Shown: one piece after another, positions 1,388 to 39,089 of the stretch
Layout of the letters: each line of letters begins with the position of its first letter
How positions within the stretch are numbered: the stretch's first letter is position 1
Source: Candidatus Nomurabacteria bacterium
GTDB lineage: Bacteria > Patescibacteriota > Minisyncoccia > Phycocordibacterales > UBA9973
NCBI GenBank assembly: GCA_016196605.1
Contig: JACPXJ010000004.1
Location: 1 to 39,915, forward strand
Length of the DNA stretch: 39,915 nt
Direction of reading: 5' to 3'
Notes under the pieces: model-generated
Seen by the model: only the letters and a program-made list of their open reading frames with translations
What the model was told of the DNA's origin: nothing
Database searches by the model: none
Program-made: the position numbers and the translations under genes

Positions 1388-1457
1388 GGCTACCTAGCGC
1401 GAGTTTTGCTTCACAAAACTCGCCCCTTATTTCTAATTTCGCGAATGTTTCTTTGGG

Positions 1458-1529
1458 TGACTCTACTGGGAATCGCACCCAGATTTGAAGCTTGAGAAGC
1501 TTCCGTCCTAACTGTTAGACGATAGAGCC
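1458..1529 (-). tRNA. tRNA-Glu (anticodon CUC)
   Basis: The reverse complement folds as a cloverleaf: GGCTCTA / TC / GTCT-AACAGTTA-GGAC / G / GAAGC-TTCTCAA-GCTTC / AAAT / CTGGG-TGCGATT-CCCAG / TAGAGTC / A. The D-arm is Glu-like (TCGTCTA..GGAC). The T-loop is non-canonical (G at position 55). No CCA is encoded. Confidence 0.75.
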
Positions 1530-5872: not shown

Positions 5873-5958
5873 ATTTATGGAGAAAAAATTTAAACAACAA
5901 CAAGATAAAGAAAATAAAAAATTTGCTCTAGTAATAGATTTAATTCCAAATGTTTTTT

Positions 5959-6000
5959 AATCTACCAATTTAAACATATGTTCAAGATAGTAGATTATAG
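5959..6000. repeat. 42-bp repeat copy 1 (nested palindrome) upstream of ORF 6028
   Basis: AATCTACCAATTTAAACATATGTTCAAGATAGTAGATTATAG. Outer arms are AATCTAC/GTAGATT and the inner part is a near-palindrome TT(A)AACATATGTTCAA. Confidence 0.9.
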
Positions 6001-6606: not shown

Positions 6607-6648
6607 AATCTACCAATTTGAACATATGTTCAAGATAGTAGATTACAG
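6607..6648. repeat. 42-bp repeat copy 2 downstream of ORF 6028
   Basis: AATCTACCAATTTGAACATATGTTCAAGATAGTAGATTACAG matches copy 1 at 40 of 42 positions. It contains the perfect 16-bp palindrome TTGAACATATGTTCAA. Confidence 0.9.
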
Positions 6649-14426: not shown

Positions 14427-14642
14427 ATGAAACGTCACTCGCTAGCTATCATGGCTGTGCTCATCGTAGCCGGAGCAATCTTGGTTAGTTATCGCATTCT
14501 CGTTCCGGCCCACAAGGCCGTGTTCGGGAACAGCCAGCCAGTAAAGGCTCAAAAAACAAATCAGACCAAAGTGATTGTTGCCCCAGCACGGTCTGGAGTC
14601 ATCAATCTCGAAGTCCACCTCAACCCAACGTTTGCACCATAA
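14427..14642 (+). CDS. Small hypothetical protein with an N-terminal TM anchor
   Basis: MKRHSLAIMAVLIVAGAILVSY.. It lies 10 nt upstream of the next ORF. There is no homology I recognise, and a GC-rich context inflates spurious ORFs. Confidence 0.35.
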   Translation: MKRHSLAIMAVLIVAGAILVSYRILVPAHKAVFGNSQPVKAQKTNQTKVIVAPARSGVINLEVHLNPTFAP

Positions 14643-14652
14643 ATTTTCGGTT

Positions 14653-15702
14653 ATGAAAAAAATACTCAGCCTCACTTGCGTCGCAATTGCGACGGCGCTT
14701 TGCGCCTTCGCCCAAACTCCAGTTACACCTCCAGGTTCACCACCGTCGGAACTTCCCGCCATCGTCAACAGTGGCACCTTGCGCGCCCGCGCATTCGAGC
14801 TCGCCGCCGAGGTTAACGCCTCGATGTGGGGGAGCGATTCATTGCTCCCAAGCGATACCACCTATGATCACCGGACATGGGTTGGGAAGAAAAACTCGCT
14901 GGAGATTCTGGATCAGGTCAAGCTACTCAAGCTTGCTGGCCAGACGGTGAGTTCCTCCGACGATATCAACATAGGCGGGTCCATCAATGCCAAGGACGGC
15001 GATCAGCTTTTCGCCGGAATGAACACGGTGAAGCCGGTGCAAGTCGGCGGCGTGTGGACGCTTCCGAGCACTGTCGGCAATATCGCCTTTGCTTTGTCGA
15101 GCGTTCCGTTCGATATGGGCAAGGAGGTTGCGGGTGTTGTTGGCGTTGGGAAAGACACCAACGGCAACCCAAGCACGGTCTGGATGGGATACGGCGGCAG
15201 AAAGATTTACGTCTCGCCACTCCTGTATACTTTGTCTAATCCAGTGGTGCGTGTGTCTTTCACTGATGGCAGTGTGTGGGATTACACAGCCGCGGACGGT
15301 GGAAAAGGCAAAAAGATAGTGGTGATTCCGCTTACGGTCAACATGTCCGGTTCGTTCAAGAACACGGTCACTCTCAAAGATCCGCCGAACGGCTTCGTAT
15401 CGGTTGTTTCGATCAAGACAACCAACAAAGTCGGGATCACTCCGACAATCGAGGTTATGTCTTCGTCGATGACGACAATAATAGTAAATTTTGATATCTC
15501 AACCACTGACGGTAAACGTCCAGTGAGGTTGTGGTATCGAAAAAGCACCGATTCTAACGAAAGTTGGGCACCGGCCGTGTACGATGTCGGGCAGACAATC
15601 AAGGGGCTGCCCATTAACTACGACGGCAAAGCTGGCACCACCTATGTCGTGCCGGAATTCAAAGTGGGGGATCTGACGGAACCCTCTCCTTACGGAAAGT
15701 AA
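14653..15702 (+). CDS. Secreted hypothetical protein (Sec signal peptide, beta-rich)
   Basis: An internal ATG at 14653 gives MKKILSLTCVAIATALCAFA/QTP.., a signal peptide. The long ORF has a strong GC3 bias. I recognise no family. Confidence 0.6.
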   Translation: MKKILSLTCVAIATALCAFAQTPVTPPGSPPSELPAIVNSGTLRARAFELAAEVNASMWGSDSLLPSDTTYDHRTWVGKKNSLEILDQVKLLKLAGQTVSSSDDINIGGSINAKDGDQLFAGMNTVKPVQVGGVWTLPSTVGNIAFALSSVPFDMGKEVAGVVGVGKDTNGNPSTVWMGYGGRKIYVSPLLYTLSNPVVRVSFTDGSVWDYTAADGGKGKKIVVIPLTVNMSGSFKNTVTLKDPPNGFVSVVSIKTTNKVGITPTIEVMSSSMTTIIVNFDISTTDGKRPVRLWYRKSTDSNESWAPAVYDVGQTIKGLPINYDGKAGTTYVVPEFKVGDLTEPSPYGK

Positions 15703-16268: not shown

Positions 16269-16290
16269 TTTATATTTGTACTTTAGAATC

Positions 16291-16316
16291 AAAAAACCGC
16301 CTCCCGGCGGTTTTTT
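16291..16316 (+). terminator. Rho-independent terminator
   Basis: AAAAAACCGCC-TCCC-GGCGGTTTTTT. Confidence 0.8.
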
Positions 16317-16321
16317 GATTG

Positions 16322-16383
16322 GACCTCTCCCGGCTTTCAGCCACCCTCTCCTTAATAAGGAGAGGGACCGGGGGTGAGGTGAG
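16322..16383. repeat. REP/MITE-like nested palindrome, copy A
   Basis: ACCTCTCCCGG..CCCTCTCCTTAATAAGGAGAGGG..CCGGGGGTGAGGTGAG. The same architecture occurs at 18030, 24211 and 30151. Confidence 0.85.
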
Positions 16384-17194: not shown

Positions 17195-18043
17195 ATGGAA
17201 AAAATCGCGCATGAAATTACATTATTTGCAGAGCCAATTTTCCACCTTGGGAATTTTACCATTACCAACGCTCTGCTTACATCTTGGGTAGCTGTCGCAG
17301 TAATCATAATTTTATCTATCATATTGCGCACGAAGCTTCGCGTCATCCCCGGCAAACTCCAGAATATTTTTGAAATCGTTACCGAGGGCGCGCTAAGTCT
17401 CTGCGATCAGGTGACTGGCAGTCGCATCCTTTCCATGAAAATTTTTCCTTTGGCTATCTGCGTTTTTTTCTTCATCTTACTTAATAATTGGTTGGGACTT
17501 TTGCCTATTGGCGGACTGGGGCTTTTAGAAAGAAGCGAAAAAGGGCTAGCTTTTGTCCCATTTTTACGAGGTGGGACGGCTGACATAAATACTACCATTG
17601 CCCTTGCCGTAATGGCTGTTATCGGGGCAAATATCTTCGGGATTTTTTCAATCGGCATATGGAAAATTTTTAATAAATATGTTAATCTAAAGGCGCTCGG
17701 GGGGACATTTACGAAAATACGTAAAGAGCCGGCAGTCATCATCGTAGCTCCGATCACGTTCTTTGTGGGTATAATCGAGATTATCAGCGAATTTGCCAAG
17801 GTGGCCTCTTTGTCATTTCGTCTTTTTGGCAACGTTTTTGCCGGGGAAGTTCTTCTGGCATCCATGGCGGCGCTGGTGGCCTATGTGGTTCCAATACCAT
17901 TTCTCTTTTTGGAAATTATGGTGGGAATCATACAGGCATTAATATTTTCAATTTTGCTGGTTGTTTATTTTACGATAGCCTCTACGGATCATGAGGAGCA
18001 CGAAGAAAAACATGAACATTTATTGAGTGCCCCCTCTCCTTAA
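17195..18043 (+). CDS. atpB: F0F1 ATP synthase subunit a
   Basis: Polytopic membrane protein with the conserved LSFRLFGNVFAGEV (essential Arg). The last codons and the stop lie inside a REP element. Confidence 0.95.
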   Translation: MEKIAHEITLFAEPIFHLGNFTITNALLTSWVAVAVIIILSIILRTKLRVIPGKLQNIFEIVTEGALSLCDQVTGSRILSMKIFPLAICVFFFILLNNWLGLLPIGGLGLLERSEKGLAFVPFLRGGTADINTTIALAVMAVIGANIFGIFSIGIWKIFNKYVNLKALGGTFTKIRKEPAVIIVAPITFFVGIIEIISEFAKVASLSFRLFGNVFAGEVLLASMAALVAYVVPIPFLFLEIMVGIIQALIFSILLVVYFTIASTDHEEHEEKHEHLLSAPSP

Positions 18044-18116
18044 CAAGGAGAGGGCCGGGGTGAGGTTCTTGAGTCAGGAACCTCCTCCCAGCCTCCCCCT
18101 TATTAAGGGGGAGGGG
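18030..18116. repeat. Two adjacent REP-like palindromes, copies B1 and B2
   Basis: CCCTCTCCTTAACAAGGAGAGGG + CCGGGGTGAGGT at 18032-18066. Then AGGTTC-TTGAGTCAG-GAACCT, followed by the variant CCTCCCCCTTATTAAGGGGGAGG at 18092-18114. Confidence 0.85.
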
Positions 18117-20924: not shown

Positions 20925-21866
20925 ATGGCGGGTACTAAAGAGATAAAACGACGAATTAGATCAGTCAAGAACACCAAGAAGATCACAAAGGCGATGGAGC
21001 TGGTGGCGGCTTCCAAGATGAAGCGAGTCGTTTCTTTGACGCTTGCTTCCCGATTATATGCTGAATATTCTTGGGAGATTTTGACCTCGATAGCTAAAAA
21101 TGTGGAAGAATTGGAACATCCGCTTTTCGCAGAAAGAAAGAAAAAGAAAAATGAAAAAGAGAATATTTTATTGATACTTATCACTTCAAATAGGGGTCTT
21201 TGTGGCGCTTATAATGCGCAAATAATGAAAAAAGCTCTTACTTTTTTAAAAACTAATAAAAACGCCAACATAAGTTTAGGGTCAGTTGGCAAAAAGGGAG
21301 AAATTTTCATTAATCGCACGATTGGATTTTCTTCAGCGAACTTTATTCTAGATGATGTAACTCTTGCCGATATTGAACCAGTTGCAAAATATGTTATAGA
21401 TGAATATAAAAATTTAACATACGGTAAAGTTTTGGTGGCTTATACTGATTTTATTTCCGCTCTTACCCAAAAGCCGAACATCAAGCAGATATTGCCTGTA
21501 TCCAAAGTTGATCTCAAAAAAGTGATCGAGTCTTTGGAGAATATTCGTCACGCGGAAGTCGGACTTCCGCAAAGCCAAAGCGGAAGTCCGACTTCCGCGC
21601 AAATTAAAGTGGATTATTTGTTTGAAGGGGATAAGGTAAAATTGATTAGCTCGCTTGCGGAAAAGCTTACCCGAATGCAAATATATCAGATGATAATCGA
21701 ATCAAACGCGAGCGAGCAGTCGAGTCGTATGGTTGCCATGAAGAATGCCTCGGACGCTTCCGGAGAAATGATAGATGATCTGACCTTGATGTTCAACAAA
21801 GCGAGACAGGCGAATATTACCAGAGAAATATCAGAAATAAGCGCGGGGATGGCATCCGTAAGCTGA
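20925..21866 (+). CDS. atpG: F0F1 ATP synthase subunit gamma
   Basis: KEIKRRIRSVKNTKKITKAMELVAASKM, and C-terminus ARQANITREISEI..G. Confidence 0.95.
   Translation: MAGTKEIKRRIRSVKNTKKITKAMELVAASKMKRVVSLTLASRLYAEYSWEILTSIAKNVEELEHPLFAERKKKKNEKENILLILITSNRGLCGAYNAQIMKKALTFLKTNKNANISLGSVGKKGEIFINRTIGFSSANFILDDVTLADIEPVAKYVIDEYKNLTYGKVLVAYTDFISALTQKPNIKQILPVSKVDLKKVIESLENIRHAEVGLPQSQSGSPTSAQIKVDYLFEGDKVKLISSLAEKLTRMQIYQMIIESNASEQSSRMVAMKNASDASGEMIDDLTLMFNKARQANITREISEISAGMASVS
21551..21599. repeat. Twin 19-nt palindromes in inverted orientation inside atpG
   Basis: GCGGAAGTCGGACTTCCGC (21552-21570), AAAGCCAAA, GCGGAAGTCCGACTTCCGC (21580-21598). The second is the exact reverse complement of the first. 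Confidence 0.9.
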
Positions 21867-21919: not shown

Positions 21920-23335
<1,416 letters not shown>

Positions 23336-23346
23336 AATTTTTTAAC

Positions 23347-23386
23347 AAGGACGGTCCTTAAGAGAGTTTCCCCAAGGACCGTCCTT
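23347..23386. repeat. Intergenic twin palindromes AAGGACGGTCCTT / AAGGACCGTCCTT between atpD and atpC
   Basis: The second unit is the exact reverse complement of the first. They can form a 13-bp stem with a 14-nt loop or two local hairpins. Confidence 0.85.
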
Positions 23387-23878: not shown

Positions 23879-24619
23879 ATGTCAAAATTTTACATAGTTG
23901 CGACGCCGATAGGAAATATGGGAGACATCACCCTAAGGGCAATTGAAACCTTGAAAAATGTCGATTTAATTTTGTGCGAGGATACGCGAGAGACGCATAA
24001 AATTTTAGAAAAATATGGAATATCTACGCCGACTATGAGTTATCCATCCGACGATGTCGTCAGAAAAAACTCCAGACAGAGCAACAAATTTGACAAAATT
24101 TTTGAATTATTGGAAGAGGGGAAAGATCTTGCTCTAGTTTCTGACGCGGGTACACCGACCATTTCTGACCCGGGCGCGATGCTAGTTTCTAAAATTAAAG
24201 AAAAGTTTAACCTCACCCCTTCGCCCCTCTCCTTATCAAGGAGAGGGGTTGGGGGAGAGGTGAGTGTGATTCCTATTCCCGGTCCTTCGGCTGTCATTGC
24301 GGCGCTCTCTGCTTCAGGCCTGCCTACTCATGAATTTACTTTTCTCGGTTTTTTACCGCACAAAAAGGGCAGAGAGACTTTGTTTAAAGAAATCGTCGAG
24401 TCAGAAAGGACAATGGTGTTTTACGAATCTCCCCACAGAATTTTAAAAACACTTGAAGCTCTCGTTAAATTCTGTCCTGATAAAAAAGTCTGCGTTGCGA
24501 GGGAGCTTACGAAAATTTATGAAGAATTTAAAACCGGGACACCATCGGAAATATTATATTATCTAGTTCAAAACCCTGTAAAACAAAAAGGGGAGTTTAC
24601 GGTTATCGTTGCATGGTAG
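23879..24619 (+). CDS. rsmI: 16S rRNA (cytidine1402-2'-O)-methyltransferase
   Basis: FYIVATPIGNMGDITLRAIETLKNVDLILCEDTR, SDAGTPTISDPG, PIPGPSAVIAALSASGLP, ESPHR. Confidence 0.9.
   Translation: MSKFYIVATPIGNMGDITLRAIETLKNVDLILCEDTRETHKILEKYGISTPTMSYPSDDVVRKNSRQSNKFDKIFELLEEGKDLALVSDAGTPTISDPGAMLVSKIKEKFNLTPSPLSLSRRGVGGEVSVIPIPGPSAVIAALSASGLPTHEFTFLGFLPHKKGRETLFKEIVESERTMVFYESPHRILKTLEALVKFCPDKKVCVARELTKIYEEFKTGTPSEILYYLVQNPVKQKGEFTVIVAW
24211..24264. repeat. REP/MITE-like nested palindrome, copy C, in frame inside rsmI
   Basis: CCTCACCCC-TTCG-CCCCTCTCCTTATCAAGGAGAGGGG-TT-GGGGGAGAGGTGAG. It translates as LTPSPLSLSRRGVGGEVS between the SDPG and PIPGPSA motifs. Confidence 0.9.
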
Positions 24620-29014: not shown

Positions 29015-30151
29015 ATGAACATTTTAATTTTCTTGATTATTCTTCTAGTCTTGGTTTTAGTCCATGAGTTTGGGCATTTTTTTACTGCAAAAAAGTTCGG
29101 TATAAGAGTTGATGAATTCGGCTTTGGTTTTCCGCCGAAAATTGCAGGAATAAAAAAGGGTGAGACAGAGTATAGTCTTAATGCCTTGCCATTTGGCGGA
29201 TTTGTCAAGATTTTTGGCGAAAACGGAGAAGATTCTGTGAAGGTCGAACCTTCCCAAAATACTCATAGGGAAGGTTCGACCTTCACAGATGTGGATGCGA
29301 GCAGGAGTTTTGTGAATAGGCCAAAATGGCAGCAGGCGATAGTTCTTTTTGCCGGCGTGTTTATGAATTTTATTTTAGCTTGGATATTATTTTCTGTCGG
29401 TTTCATGTCCGGGCTTCCGACATCAGTCGGGAATGAAGCGAAAGGGCAGGTTCTTGAAAACGTAAATTTAACTGTTGTTTCTGTGTTAGAAACATCTCCG
29501 GCATTTATGGCAGGACTTAAATCCGGCGATAAGATAGTATCGGTACAAAGTGGACAGGATTCGTTAAGCAAGATTGATCCTGAAACTTTGAAATCCTTTA
29601 TCGTTGCCCATCCAGATAAAGAAATAGAGGTCGGATACGAGAGGGGTAACAATATTCAGGTTGCTAAAGTAACACCCATTCAAAATACCGAACAGGATAA
29701 ACCAATGATAGGCATATCCATGGATATGATTGGTACGGCCAAACTTCCATTTTTAACGGCTTTTAAAGAAGGAATGACCTTGACACTATTTGTTACAAAA
29801 GGTACAGCCGTGGGGCTCTATACGCTTATTTCTGAAGCAGTGAGAGGTCAAGGTAGTCTGGACTCGGTGACGGGGATCGTGGGCATGGTGGGTATGACAG
29901 GTGATGCATACGAATTTGGTTTTGTTTATCTCCTGTCATTTACCGCGCTTATTTCGGTGAACCTTGCGATCATAAATTTAGTTCCGATTCCGGCGCTGGA
30001 TGGCGGACGGCTGCTGTTCCTTCTTATTGAAAAAATAAAAGGGTCGCGTCTAAATTCTAAATTTACCAATACCGCCAACGCTGTCGGTTTCGGCGCCTTA
30101 ATAATTCTCATGCTGGTTATTACATATCACGATGTAGTAAAATTATTTTGA
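29015..30151 (+). CDS. rseP: RIP metalloprotease RseP (site-2 protease)
   Basis: HEFGHFFTAKKFGIRVDEFGFGFPP (HExxH), a PDZ-like middle, and NLVPIPALDGGRL. Confidence 0.9.
   Translation: MNILIFLIILLVLVLVHEFGHFFTAKKFGIRVDEFGFGFPPKIAGIKKGETEYSLNALPFGGFVKIFGENGEDSVKVEPSQNTHREGSTFTDVDASRSFVNRPKWQQAIVLFAGVFMNFILAWILFSVGFMSGLPTSVGNEAKGQVLENVNLTVVSVLETSPAFMAGLKSGDKIVSVQSGQDSLSKIDPETLKSFIVAHPDKEIEVGYERGNNIQVAKVTPIQNTEQDKPMIGISMDMIGTAKLPFLTAFKEGMTLTLFVTKGTAVGLYTLISEAVRGQGSLDSVTGIVGMVGMTGDAYEFGFVYLLSFTALISVNLAIINLVPIPALDGGRLLFLLIEKIKGSRLNSKFTNTANAVGFGALIILMLVITYHDVVKLF
29235..29288. repeat. 54-nt palindrome (perfect 21-bp arms, 12-nt loop) inside rseP
   Basis: CTGTGAAGGTCGAACCTTCCC-AAAATACTCATA-GGGAAGGTTCGACCTTCACAG. 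It is in frame and encodes SVKVEPSQNTHREGSTFTD. Confidence 0.95.
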
Positions 30152-30205
30152 CCTCTCCCTAGCCCCTCTCCTTATTAAGGAGAGGGGAAAAAAGGGGTGA
30201 GGTGA
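30151..30205. repeat. REP/MITE-like nested palindrome, copy D
   Basis: ACCTCTCCC-TAG-CCCCTCTCCTTATTAAGGAGAGGGG-AAAAAA-GGGGTGAGGTGA. It starts on the last base of the rseP stop, and its GAGGTGA tail lies 7 nt (30206-30212) upstream of the ATG at 30213. Confidence 0.9.
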
Positions 30206-36918: not shown

Positions 36919-39089
36919 CTTTCTATCTTCTTTATTTTGTGAGGATTGTGCATCGGACATGCTTTATTAGAGCAACGTTCGGGGATGGTTTTCGTGCCTT
37001 CCATCATGAGAGAGCCGCATTCTTTGCAGATATTCCCGGTTGGTTTGGCTTTTATCGCGAATTTGCATTTAGGATAATTTGAACAGGAATAGAAAATGCC
37101 GAATCGTCCGCGGCGCTCGCTGATGTCTCCGGTTTTACATAGAGGACAGGATACACCAGTGCGTTTTTTGGCTTCATCTGCTTCATCGCTCTTTATGAAT
37201 TTGCATTTTGGATAGCGGGAGCAAGAAATAAAAGTGCCTGTGCCGTCACGCCTTTGTCTGATGACCAGCTTGCCGCCCATATCTTTTTTTCTTTTCCCCC
37301 CAGCCTCCGCTAAAGCTACGGCGGGCGCAGCACACTCGGGGCACATTTCTCCGGTTTCCTCCGGACCTTTTAGTTCTGTACCGTCAAGCATCAATGCCCC
37401 ATCGCAGTCAGGGTAACGTAAGCAAGAATAGAATTTTCCTCCCCGAGAGAGCTTGATAATCATGTTGGATCCACATTTTGGGCACTTGATATTTTTCGGC
37501 GCATCGCCCAAATTCGTAGCTTTCTCCAACTTTTCTTTTGATTTCACTTCTTTTAAAAATGGCCCATAGAAATCTTTGAGCGTCTTCTCATATTCGCGCT
37601 CGCCGCGGGAAATTTCATCAAGTTCATCTTCCATTTCGGCGGTAAAGCTGTCAGATATGTAATTCATAAAATGTTTTTCCAAGAAGTCAGACACGACTTC
37701 GCCCACGTCAGTAGGGAATAAAGTTTTTCCCTCTTTTTTTACGTAACCTCTTTCTTCAATGGTGCGCATTATCGAAGCGTAAGTTGAAGGTCGCCCTATG
37801 TCCCTTTGTTCCAGTTCTTTGATAAGTCCTGCTTCACTATACCTGTCGGGCGGCAAAGTAAATTTTTCCTCATTATTTAAATCTATCAACTTCAAAACTT
37901 CTCCTTCCTTACATTGAGGAAGGTTTACATCATCACCGACTGCGTCGCTATCCACTTTGAGCCACCCGGGAAATAAGAGACGAGAGCCGTTGGCTCCGAA
38001 TTCAGGCAGATCATCATGATTTTTTATTTTGGCAGTGACTTTTGTTTTAAGCAGTTTTGCGTCAGTCATCTGGGAAGACACTGCCCGTTCCCAGATCAAC
38101 CTGTACAATCTGTCCTGATCCTCGCTTCCGGCAGTGAGGTGTTCTATATGAGTAGGGCGTATGGCTTCGTGCGCCTCCTGGACATTTTTTGATTTGGCTT
38201 TGTAAACTCGCGCTTCTGCATAGTCTGCGCCGTATTTCTTTTTTACGAGCGCAATAATTTGGTTTTGAGCGGTAACAGACAAATTTGTGCTGTCCGTTCG
38301 CATATAGGTAATATGCCCGGCTTCATAAAGTTTTTGAGATATTTGCATAGTACGCGAAGGGGAATATCCAAGCCGCGAGCTGGCAGTCTGCTGCAGAGTA
38401 GAAGTGGTAAAAGGCGCGCGAGGCGAACGCTTTTGTTCGGACTCTTTAACTCCACTTACGATCCAAGTGCCATCCTTGCCCTCTCTCATTATTCTTTGCA
38501 CTAATTTCTCATCCCGAGGTTCTTCGGAACATTCCAGAAGAAGCTGGCTCCCCAAAGCAAGACCTTGGGATCCCTTAAGGTCTTGCTTTTCTCCGCCAGC
38601 AGTTTTAAATAGACCAAAGACTCTCCAGTATTTTTCTGGCACAAAAGCGCGGATTTCGCGTTCACGTTCCATAATAATTCGGAGCGCCGGCGATTGAACC
38701 CGGCCAGCCGAAAGCCCGTAGCGGACTTTTTTCCAGATAAGCCCGGAAAGATCGTAGCCGACAAGGCGGTCGAGAACCCTTCGCGCTTCTTGCGCTTGCC
38801 TTAAGTTAGTATCAATTTTTCGCGGCTCTTTTAACGCTTCCTCCACAGCTTCCTTTGTGATTTCATGGAATGTTACCCTTTCTATCGGCGCTTTTACTTT
38901 TTTGTCCTGTTTTAAAAGAGTTTCTATGTGCCAGGCAATTGCTTCACCCTCACGGTCAGGGTCGGTCGCGATTATCACTTCATTTGCTTTTTGTGCCAGC
39001 CCCTGTAGTTCGTGCACGATTTTTTCTTTCCCCTTGGAAATTTCGTAGTTGGGAACAAATCCGGCCTCGATATCGATCGCATAGTGCAA
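36915..39089 (-). CDS. topA: DNA topoisomerase I (the ORF lacks the usual N-terminal ~40-45 residues)
   Basis: IATDPDREGEAIAWHI, the active-site region GHITYMRTDS, and four C-terminal zinc ribbons (CPKCGS.., CPEC.., CPLC.., CKECGS..). The ORF can only start at the TTG at 39089, 3 nt after the dprA stop. Confidence 0.85.
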   Translation of the reverse strand: MHYAIDIEAGFVPNYEISKGKEKIVHELQGLAQKANEVIIATDPDREGEAIAWHIETLLKQDKKVKAPIERVTFHEITKEAVEEALKEPRKIDTNLRQAQEARRVLDRLVGYDLSGLIWKKVRYGLSAGRVQSPALRIIMEREREIRAFVPEKYWRVFGLFKTAGGEKQDLKGSQGLALGSQLLLECSEEPRDEKLVQRIMREGKDGTWIVSGVKESEQKRSPRAPFTTSTLQQTASSRLGYSPSRTMQISQKLYEAGHITYMRTDSTNLSVTAQNQIIALVKKKYGADYAEARVYKAKSKNVQEAHEAIRPTHIEHLTAGSEDQDRLYRLIWERAVSSQMTDAKLLKTKVTAKIKNHDDLPEFGANGSRLLFPGWLKVDSDAVGDDVNLPQCKEGEVLKLIDLNNEEKFTLPPDRYSEAGLIKELEQRDIGRPSTYASIMRTIEERGYVKKEGKTLFPTDVGEVVSDFLEKHFMNYISDSFTAEMEDELDEISRGEREYEKTLKDFYGPFLKEVKSKEKLEKATNLGDAPKNIKCPKCGSNMIIKLSRGGKFYSCLRYPDCDGALMLDGTELKGPEETGEMCPECAAPAVALAEAGGKRKKDMGGKLVIRQRRDGTGTFISCSRYPKCKFIKSDEADEAKKRTGVSCPLCKTGDISERRGRFGIFYSCSNYPKCKFAIKAKPTGNICKECGSLMMEGTKTIPERCSNKACPMHNPHKIKKIES
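38554..38589. repeat. Palindrome AAAGCAAGACCTT-GGGATCCCTT-AAGGTCTTGCTTT inside topA
   Basis: 13-bp perfect arms, within the segment encoding ..DLKGSQGLALGSQ.. Confidence 0.8.

Follow-up and report, generated by a model that had tools for sequence, protein, structure and literature searches.

The rsmI gene of a Candidatus Nomurabacteria contig (JACPXJ010000004.1), in the 39,915-nt stretch analysed here (the window, whose positions serve as coordinates throughout), contains a nested palindrome of 54 nt that adds 18 codons to an otherwise intact reading frame for the 16S rRNA (cytidine1402-2'-O)-methyltransferase. This palindrome, copy C of a family dispersed in the window, is in our judgement likely to be an element akin to the repetitive extragenic palindromes (REPs) and the Rickettsia palindromic elements (RPEs), tolerated in a flexible interdomain linker and inherited from the ancestor of a Paceibacterota subclade. 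[quoted passage not shown]

Four copies and a variant of the repeat lie within 14 kb of the window, an AT-rich sequence (G+C 42%) in which none was expected by chance, in agreement with the five dispersed nested palindromes originally annotated. The core, CCCCTCTCCTT-NNN-AAGGAGAGGGG, is found at 16343, 18031, 24224 and 30163, consists of an 11-bp stem with a 3-nt loop (ANN), and was absent from the 100 dinucleotide shuffles of the window that gave the chance expectation. As first written, CCCCTCTCCTTA-NN-TAAGGAGAGGGG, the core pattern had one T too many and found no match even with 3 mismatches; the corrected form with the 3-nt loop does match. The arms had been placed correctly, left arms ACCTC(T/A)CCC at 16323, 24210 and 30151 and right arms GGG(T/A)GAGGT at 16372, 18058, 24253 and 30195, but copy B lacks a left arm and forms a dimer with the variant. 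Most copies are bordered by ACCTC(A/T)CCC and GGGTGAGGT arms, copies A, C and D being two-armed, and each unit of the family comprises a homopyrimidine/homopurine hairpin, its 11-bp stem closed by a 3-nt loop, and one or two arms of 9-10 nt (ACCTCACCC / GGGTGAGGT). The stems contain no stop codon in any frame of either strand, with the sole exception of one GGGTGAGGT frame that holds TGA. The host gene, the copies and the parts of copy C are listed below.

rsmI, 23879..24619, forward strand: 16S rRNA (cytidine1402-2'-O)-methyltransferase, 246 aa (ORF, TIGR00096, 5HW4, Foldseek).
Copy A, 16322..16383, forward strand: intergenic, after the terminator of the RRM-protein gene and 44 nt upstream of tRNA-Ile.
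Copy B, 18031..18066, forward strand: one-armed unit, core plus GGGGTGAGGT.
Variant unit, 18080..18116, forward strand: inverted order, arm AACCTCCTCCC followed by the core CCTCCCCCTT-ATT-AAGGGGGAGG (18092-18114); upstream of atpE.
Copy C, 24210..24263, forward strand: 54 nt, 18 codons in rsmI, residues 111-128, translated NLTPSPLSLSRRGVGGEV.
Copy C, left outer arm ACCTCACCCC, 24210..24219, forward strand: pairs with 24251-24261 except for one A.A mismatch.
Copy C, core hairpin, 24224..24248, forward strand: CCCCTCTCCTT, loop ATC, AAGGAGAGGGG, a perfect 11-bp stem.
Copy C, right outer arm GGGGGAGAGGT plus GA, 24251..24263, forward strand.
Copy D, 30149..30205, forward strand: intergenic, flanked by the genes of an M50 and an M24 peptidase, with its first bases overlapped by the M50 stop TGA.

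Copy C reads in full ACCTCACCCC-TTCG-CCCCTCTCCTT-ATC-AAGGAGAGGGG-TT-GGGGGAGAGGT-GA, and its single-strand fold (-40.5 kcal/mol, z = -5.35) was not equalled in stability by any of 200 shuffles. Copy A has both arms and a small additional hairpin, GGCTTTCAGCC, in its left linker. Copy B encodes the final codons of atpB (..APSP), whose stop TAA sits in its loop; pairing of its right arm with the variant's left arm joins the two in a head-to-head dimer of one-armed units, which folds into three hairpins (-57.4 kcal/mol, z = -4.8). In copy D, 7 nt separate the end of the right arm (GAGGTGA) from the M24 peptidase ATG (30213) downstream, and this arm could act as the ribosome-binding site of that gene. 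A role of the family as a mimic of the Shine-Dalgarno (SD) or anti-Shine-Dalgarno sequence (TAAGGAG / CCTCCTTA-like) was discarded: only copy D lies at a start codon, and an SD-like sequence is missing upstream of rsmI, atpC and atpE. Copies A-D are not followed by a T run, as an intrinsic terminator would be; a separate canonical terminator lies at 16287-16320, directly before copy A. At 15682-15702, CCCTCTCCTTACGGAAAGTAA forms the 3' end of the ORF 14575..15702 (..EPSPYGK*) and may be a decayed half-copy of the element that provides the C-terminus of that ORF.

The window RsmI scored 220.8 bits against TIGR00096 (E = 2e-65; cut-off 167.9), which places it in this equivalog family, aligned with E. 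coli RsmI (PDB 5HW4) at E = 6e-47 and returned RsmI proteins as its top Foldseek matches. It comprises only the N-terminal and core domains: the TIGR00096 match extends from profile position 2 to 219 of 275 (or 232 of 287), the ORF ends two residues further on, and the E. coli-type C-terminal domain is absent, as is the three-helix domain in RsmI relatives of 228-263 aa. In E. coli RsmI that three-helix domain binds h23b and is required for activity, according to cryo-electron microscopy published in 2026 (PMC13037946).

Copy C reads N111-LTPSPLSLSRRGVGGEV-S129 within this ORF, in frame between the ISDPG and IPIPGPSA motifs as had been annotated. In the alignment to 5HW4 the window protein is 17 residues longer exactly at copy C, which agrees with the insert of about 17 residues first estimated, and the extra residues fall between the helix after DPG and the strand leading into the PGPSA motif. 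The insert had been thought to occupy the place of the usual helix and strand; the helix after ISDPG is in fact kept, and the insert lies between it and the next strand. Single-domain structures match residues 4-105 (3HH1) and 137-245 (3FFY) and so flank residues 111-128, which puts the insert at the domain boundary. An AlphaFold2 model built on 70 homologs (mean pLDDT 76.8, pTM 0.51) has a helix at 98-109, coil at 110-127 and a strand at 128-133, with pLDDT below 50 at residues 115-125 in the insert coil, and the insert is thus modelled as a loop of low confidence. The methyltransferase frame is preserved, as predicted: the ORF is full-length, every family-invariant RsmI residue is present, and both domains fold like solved RsmI domains (Foldseek TM 0.79 for the N-terminal and 0.86 for the C-terminal domain). 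The insert would be translated as an 18-residue disordered loop with both methylase domains intact, and enzyme activity is probably retained. Only 25 nt, which contain no terminator, lie between the rsmI stop and that of the convergent priA.

We compared the site in the 120 closest RsmI homologs (72-100% identity); relatives were seen as loci of at most 20 kb, and L-numbers denote loci from relatives or other genomes. Source names borne by the homologs nearest to the window RsmI include Candidatus Paceibacterota, Nomurabacteria and Parcubacteria, which places the window in the candidate phyla radiation (CPR). The ISDPG-IPIPG stretch varies from 16 to 56 residues among them, with the following site types.

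Element in the frame of the window (PLSLxRRG): 26 homologs.
Element with the inner segment inverted (PSPYQGEG): 3 homologs.
Variant core (PPLTGEG): 6 homologs.
Short segment: 30 homologs.
Other inserts: 55 homologs.

The same insert is found in L231 (100% RsmI identity), L230 (90%), L229 (86%) and L121, L131, L132 and L133 (81-84%), all of which share with copy C the frame, the orientation, the TTCG and TT linkers and the A.A mismatch, a signature that the intergenic copies of the window genome do not have. A single ancient gain followed by losses and replacements is favoured, although not proven, because of this shared signature, and copy C, which orthologs share down to about 80% protein identity, is old and not a recent insertion in the window genome. 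L229, the 86%-identical relative, has the rsmI copy and no other in its 20.7 kb of synteny, site D being empty and copy A absent; this speaks to the age of the rsmI copy and not against its origin as an element, because the element is also intergenic here and in other phyla. L198 and L123 have copy B in the same arrangement, finishing atpB with the stop codon in its loop, whereas L144 and L152 have an empty site there. Insert-free rsmI orthologs, which the initial annotation had proposed to seek, do exist (L137, L162, L186, L188, L189 and L180; for example KIKEKFN-AEEVQV-VPIPG). An identical RsmI protein is present in an independent Logan assembly, which makes it unlikely that the palindrome is an assembly artefact.

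Conservation of the element exceeds that of its host gene. Pairwise DNA identity is 83-96% in the element against 73-77% in the rest of the gene and 45-55% at its third codon positions, and the codons bordering the element have diverged as much as the remaining gene. L155, with 90% protein identity to L132, carries the inner segment in inverted form between unaltered outer arms, the two linkers having exchanged places; the encoded peptide is then LTPNPSPYQGEGRRGEV, but the palindrome is kept. The feature preserved at rsmI is therefore the nucleic-acid palindrome and not the peptide.

Selection on the peptide, a basic loop (..SRRG..) that would add an rRNA contact and perhaps compensate for the missing C-terminal domain, is accordingly an explanation that we regard as highly improbable. 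It would fit a window RsmI that terminates at the core domain, the near loss of activity of E. coli RsmI minus its final 50 residues, and the presence, in the helix before the insert, of equivalents of E. coli Y103/H104, which touch h24a (PMC13037946); the peptide is nevertheless lost on inversion of the element, equally short orthologs (228-232 aa) do without the insert, conservation reaches third codon positions, and disorder is predicted for the loop. Mimicry of 16S h44 for autoregulation (CGCCCCUC vs CGCCCGUC) was also rejected, the inverted L155 copy having no such mimic on the sense strand.

The family extends well beyond this lineage. A scan of one genome per species recovered the element architecture at 120 or more genome loci in many phyla, and a further 28 viral contigs carried it. 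The matches listed include complete genomes of Nostocales (Calothrix parasitica NIES-267 and Nostocales HT-58-2 among them), loci of Bacteroidota, Ignavibacteria, Armatimonadota and Chloroflexi and, within the CPR, Nomura-, Morani-, Gracili- and Saccharibacteria and Kerfeldbacteria; single matches in further taxa among the loci listed may come from mis-binned contigs. The arms are conserved as well as the core used for searching, with a consensus made of (A)ACCTCACCC, the core and GGGTGAGGT(T), in this order, in which a linker or an additional hairpin separates the core from each arm. One arm was present in 118 of 170 copies, both in 49 and none in 3, so that the basic unit is a hairpin with one arm. 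Arm GGGTGAGGTT fits the purine-motif triplex rule against stem strand AAGGAGAGGG, and one may speculate that a hairpin with a single arm could form an intramolecular triplex.

Outside long ORFs lie about 86% of 138 copies; the remaining 14% or so are in long open frames. Pfam-confirmed genes with in-frame copies are those for Dus, FemAB, UvrD, GcvP and MgsA/RarA, and further copies occupy interdomain gaps of multidomain proteins. The Paceibacterota loci have a low density of copies, 19 in 865 kb. One-armed units showed no orientation bias relative to neighbouring genes (21/18/17/11), and a simple role in 3' untranslated regions or as a terminator is therefore unsupported. All-against-all clustering of the neighbours in the 120 loci listed returned only ABC transporters and kinases, unlinked to the element. 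Rfam 15, at its gathering threshold, matched only tRNAs in the window, and one tRNA and a cobalamin riboswitch in 12 loci, neither of them at the element; blastn against annotated plasmids gave two weak matches with uninformative annotation. A full-text literature search with four 10-mers of the element found only unrelated primers and oligonucleotides, and the literature on CPR palindromes, Nostoc small dispersed repeats (SDRs) and MITEs offered analogues and no account of the present family. In Nostocales loci (L004, L007, L031, L063 and others) the element often lies within a longer inverted repeat, GTTGAGTSCAATACAC ... GTGTATTGGACTCAAC, and small extra palindromes such as GATAAAGCACAGCTTTATC are nested in the linkers, which indicates composite or nested repeats. 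In the Moraniibacteriota locus L068 (833-4228), a UvrD gene carries both a Hint/intein domain (residues ~277-643) and an in-frame CCTCTCC element near residue 97.

The other inserts at the same rsmI site are palindromes too. The DNA of 80 metagenomic RsmI-centred Paceibacterota loci (L121-L200) holds at least ten palindrome families at this site in related lineages, among them the following.

ACGTCAACAAACTCTGCTATCGCAGAAAATGTTGACGT; hairpins with the constant centre AGGCAAGACCT; CCAGCAAGGGGAGTCCTTGCTGG.
Double hairpin AAGGTCGGACCTT..AAGGTCCGACCTT; TCCCTGAAGACCGTCTTCGGGGA; ATCTACGCCATGGCGTAGAT.
Perfect 20-21-bp stems in L166 and L200, and others.

An unbiased scan, restricted to perfect stems of at least 10 bp and to ORFs taken from stop to stop in place of curated genes, found such a stem in 29 of 81 rsmI loci, all of them at one site except in L134 and L188, which have AT-rich stems near residue 72. 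Over 844 kb of RsmI-centred loci the scan returned 245 perfect hairpins, 137 of them in coding sequences, and 30 shuffled loci gave 7 hairpins against 82 observed, an excess of about 12-fold. Recurrent sites in other genes, and the in-frame palindromes of the window itself, were these.

AtpG, around residues 200-230: 13 loci.
PriA, around residues 320-345: 16 loci, a part of them with AT-rich stems that may be native.
Protein of ~250 residues downstream of rsmI: 21 loci.
AtpD, residues 101-120: 6 loci; between the beta-barrel (7-75) and the nucleotide-binding domain (147-360).
atpD palindrome of the window, 22249-22291: perfect 20-bp stem, in frame.
atpG palindrome of the window, 21551-21599: perfect 20-bp stem, in frame.
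M50 peptidase palindrome of the window, 29234-29289: perfect 22-bp stem, in frame.
topA palindrome of the window, 38554-38589, minus strand: 13-bp stem, in frame.

The peptides encoded by these four palindromes of the window include EKQDLKGSQGLAL. That the atpD site might be unique to the window was ruled out, since the unbiased scan showed palindromes there in five more loci. The atpD palindrome of the window is absent from the 86-90% relatives L229 and L230, and the 49-bp atpG palindrome doubles a hairpin that is single in L230 at the same place; some palindromes seem to grow in place. A 42-bp palindrome, ACTTGGTAGTCGGAGTACC..., is identical in rsmI and atpG of L166, which identifies such palindromes as dispersed repeats. 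A double hairpin, AAGGACGGTCCTT-14 nt-AAGGACCGTCCTT, occupies the atpD/atpC spacer of the window (23347-23386) and recurs in L230 (76-115, 3456-3494 and 4915-4954); it is found in atp operon spacers with its loop in both orientations, and in L176 (2390-2429) it is in frame at the rsmI hot spot.

Some of these other palindromes seem to be made in place, by fold-back or template-switch replication errors that invert local sequence. The rsmI palindromes of L192 and L200 have the native (D/N)VQV codons as their right arm, many atpG palindromes start with the native codons AACTTGG, and the doubled atpG hairpin of the window would fit the same process. The 45-odd conserved bases of copy C, however, recur at three other sites of the window and in genomes of other phyla, so copy C was not built from rsmI sequence, and for copy C such an origin is very improbable.

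Repeated site-specific insertion at a preferred rsmI target, be it a pre-existing hairpin or a short motif, would dispense with shared ancestry. It could account for the presence of at least ten unrelated palindrome families at one site, several of them dispersed elsewhere (the L166 palindrome, and the double hairpin shared by L176, the window and L230), and for the nested insertions in loops and linkers of other copies (L123, and extra hairpins elsewhere), which suggest that hairpins attract hairpins; the scatter of carriers on a rough neighbour-joining tree of RsmI and the two distinct left junctions point the same way. The rsmI copies nevertheless share frame, orientation, linkers and mismatch where intergenic copies of the same genome do not, the supporting tree is built on ~220 residues and poorly resolved, and the hot spots of rsmI, atpG and atpD showed no recognisable target motif in common; we consider repeated insertion unlikely. 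The tree was itself set aside as an arbiter between one and several gains, its resolution being too weak.

A further explanation, which we hold as a tentative possibility, is that the hairpin has been exapted: selection would act on nucleic-acid structure, through an RNA signal at the domain boundary (for processing, stability or pausing) or through a DNA site for a host factor, and the peptide would be a by-product. Conservation limited to the element, the retention of the palindrome in L155 despite a changed peptide, the constancy of the stem across phyla and the concentration of perfect stems at essentially one rsmI site speak for it. Compensatory changes were seen in two other families at the rsmI site: the 'RQDL' hairpin had them at 8 of 12 pairs, with 88.5% of its cells paired, and the 'STNSAIAEN' hairpin at 5 of 15, with collapse of the slid control in both cases, and all 8 RQDL copies have one frame and one orientation. 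These sets comprise only 7-8 sequences, however, and the covariation is equally explicable by constraint on a mobile family or by hairpin-templated repair; moreover, many orthologs are free of the hairpin, the one-armed units are unbiased in orientation, Rfam gave no match, and no specific function can be named. Exaptation does not conflict with a mobile-element origin; what differs is the reason for persistence.

According to the interpretation we prefer, tolerance of an inherited element, the palindrome, from a non-coding family of small repeats, would have landed or been fixed in frame in the linker that joins the N-terminal domain of RsmI to its core domain, in the ancestor of the subclade. 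Such elements would spread at the DNA level by means of an enzyme that they do not encode, and compact genomes would retain them only where they are harmless, in short spacers and at the 3' ends of genes (copies A, B and D). Inside a gene, persistence would require a length that is a multiple of three, a stop-free frame and a flexible surface or interdomain site, and the 54 nt of rsmI, transcribed and translated as a disordered loop that spares both methylase domains, would satisfy all three. Small palindromes would arise or arrive often, and a selection filter of this kind would leave survivors in flexible linkers, hence the hot spots at domain boundaries.

Several observations weigh against this interpretation. 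A decaying selfish insert is expected to diverge like synonymous sites, and passive tolerance does not explain an identity of 83-96%. Carriers are scattered on the neighbour-joining tree, and the left junction varies by lineage (IKD|L vs KFN|L). No transposase or recurrent neighbour gene was found within ~4 kb of the element among the 120 loci listed, and no target-site duplication was seen at the ends of copies A-D or in comparisons of filled with empty sites, the empty sites being too diverged for a firm verdict. No closely related pair of genomes had a fresh insertion, so that we infer mobility from distribution only. The orientation of the two domains in the AlphaFold2 model is not to be trusted, because the whole chain reached a Foldseek TM of only 0.47.

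Two of the observations exceed what a selection filter accounts for, namely the nucleotide conservation in rsmI and the constancy of the stem across phyla, and they give a functional or drive-based explanation a modest probability. In its boldest form, which we consider distinctly unlikely, the CCTCTCC nested hairpin would be a structured nucleic-acid element shared across phyla, held by purifying selection and recognised by a widely conserved factor. If that were true, Paceibacterota would maintain several hairpin families at fixed spots in essential genes, typically at domain boundaries (RsmI, AtpD, AtpG and PriA), possibly for interdomain translational pausing, transcript processing or protein binding, or through molecular drive by biased uptake or repair.

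Among known systems, RPEs are the nearest in kind; Ogata and colleagues reportedly described them in protein-coding genes in 2000. Like them, the window family is a palindromic repeat that lies in frame in conserved genes, is read through as a surface segment, also occurs between genes and has no transposase of its own. RPE-1 measures 100-150 bp and is known only from Rickettsia, whereas the window family has a unit of 35-60 bp, another sequence and hosts in several phyla. Orthologous RPE copies are understood to decay; the rsmI element, in contrast, is held at high DNA identity. Host phylum, size and composition set the window family apart from RPE-1 to RPE-8, and the likeness is one of analogy only. 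The SDRs of Nostoc are said to have been described by Elhai and colleagues in 2008 as tiny hairpins of Nostocales that insert into each other and show compensatory changes, and they are reportedly confined to one cyanobacterial subgroup; the window family, which spans phyla, is set apart by that description.

Intragenic REPs of the GTAG and CGTC superfamilies were described by Di Nocera et al. 2013, in a paper that also discusses RPE-4 and RPE-6 (PMC3733652). The window family resembles REPs in being made of small GC-rich hairpins, often head-to-head dimers, that lie mostly downstream of genes and in some cases provide stop codons, and some intragenic REPs also encode 20-30 residues in linkers (PMC3733652). 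As a short, GC-rich, dispersed and mainly extragenic palindrome it agrees with the general notion of a REP. By definition, the stem of the two superfamilies, 5-13 bp long, bears an unpaired tetranucleotide, GTAG or CGTC, on one of its ends (PMC3733652); the bases next to the stem here are variable linkers (TTCG, TAG, CCAAC, CTTC and others), and a conserved 9-10-nt arm at variable distance takes the place of the tag, so the window family falls outside both superfamilies. Nor is it among the named cyanobacterial families (GTAG-12, -15 and -16), since these are all GTAG (PMC3733652).

The pairing of copy B with the variant recalls REPINs, inverted pairs of REP units associated with RAYT transposases (Bertels & Rainey 2011; PMC3116915), but most copies elsewhere are single one- or two-armed units, and no RAYT gene was found near the element in the 120 loci listed (8-20 kb each). 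Bacterial MITEs include in-frame elements of Coxiella (PMC5896051) and elements common to hosts and viruses (PMC11602168). Like MITEs, the window family is short, non-autonomous, occasionally in frame and present on viral contigs, and the 49 of 170 copies that have both arms end in inverted repeats; it is, however, far shorter than typical, with no target-site duplication seen and two thirds of copies one-armed, and thus does not cleanly fit the MITE definition. Perfect inverted repeats known from functional protein-coding genes likewise represent a compromise between nucleic-acid structure and protein, but in those both arms encode conserved regions and the repeats are up to 284 bp long, whereas the palindromes described here are insertions of dispersed families into variable linkers.

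Two further features of the window were noted. Within 209-1488, a perfect 35-nt tandem duplication (438-507) splits a gene for a large serine recombinase with a zinc-ribbon motif, and dropping one 35-nt copy restores a single long ORF, whose 3' end overlaps tRNA-Glu (1456-1529, minus strand); the split gene may reflect an error of assembly or be what is left of an integrated element after decay. A palindrome of 39-42 nt, AATCTACCAATTT(A/G)AACATATGTTCAAGATAGTAGATTA, occurs twice (5958-5997 and 6607-6645, 95% identical), each time just upstream of an ORF (6028.. and 6719..), and looks like a shared operator or promoter site.

In-frame palindromic repeats have been known from Rickettsia and a few REP-rich bacteria, and the present family extends them to the CPR, whose tiny genomes have almost no spare DNA. 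Some 45 conserved bases are common to cyanobacteria, Bacteroidota, Chloroflexi, CPR and viral contigs, which points to horizontal spread of a tiny element or to a shared recognition factor, and the rsmI copy keeps its palindrome across a divergence at which synonymous sites are saturated. For annotation, the phenomenon accounts for many odd low-complexity peptides (PLSLxRRG, PLLxKERG and PSPYxGEG) in predicted proteins. Different palindromes in different lineages have hit the same linkers of RsmI, the ATP synthase beta and gamma subunits and PriA, and these hot spots form a natural map of insertion-tolerant sites in essential proteins. Together, these results make it testable whether such hairpins are parasites filtered by selection or structures used by the cell.

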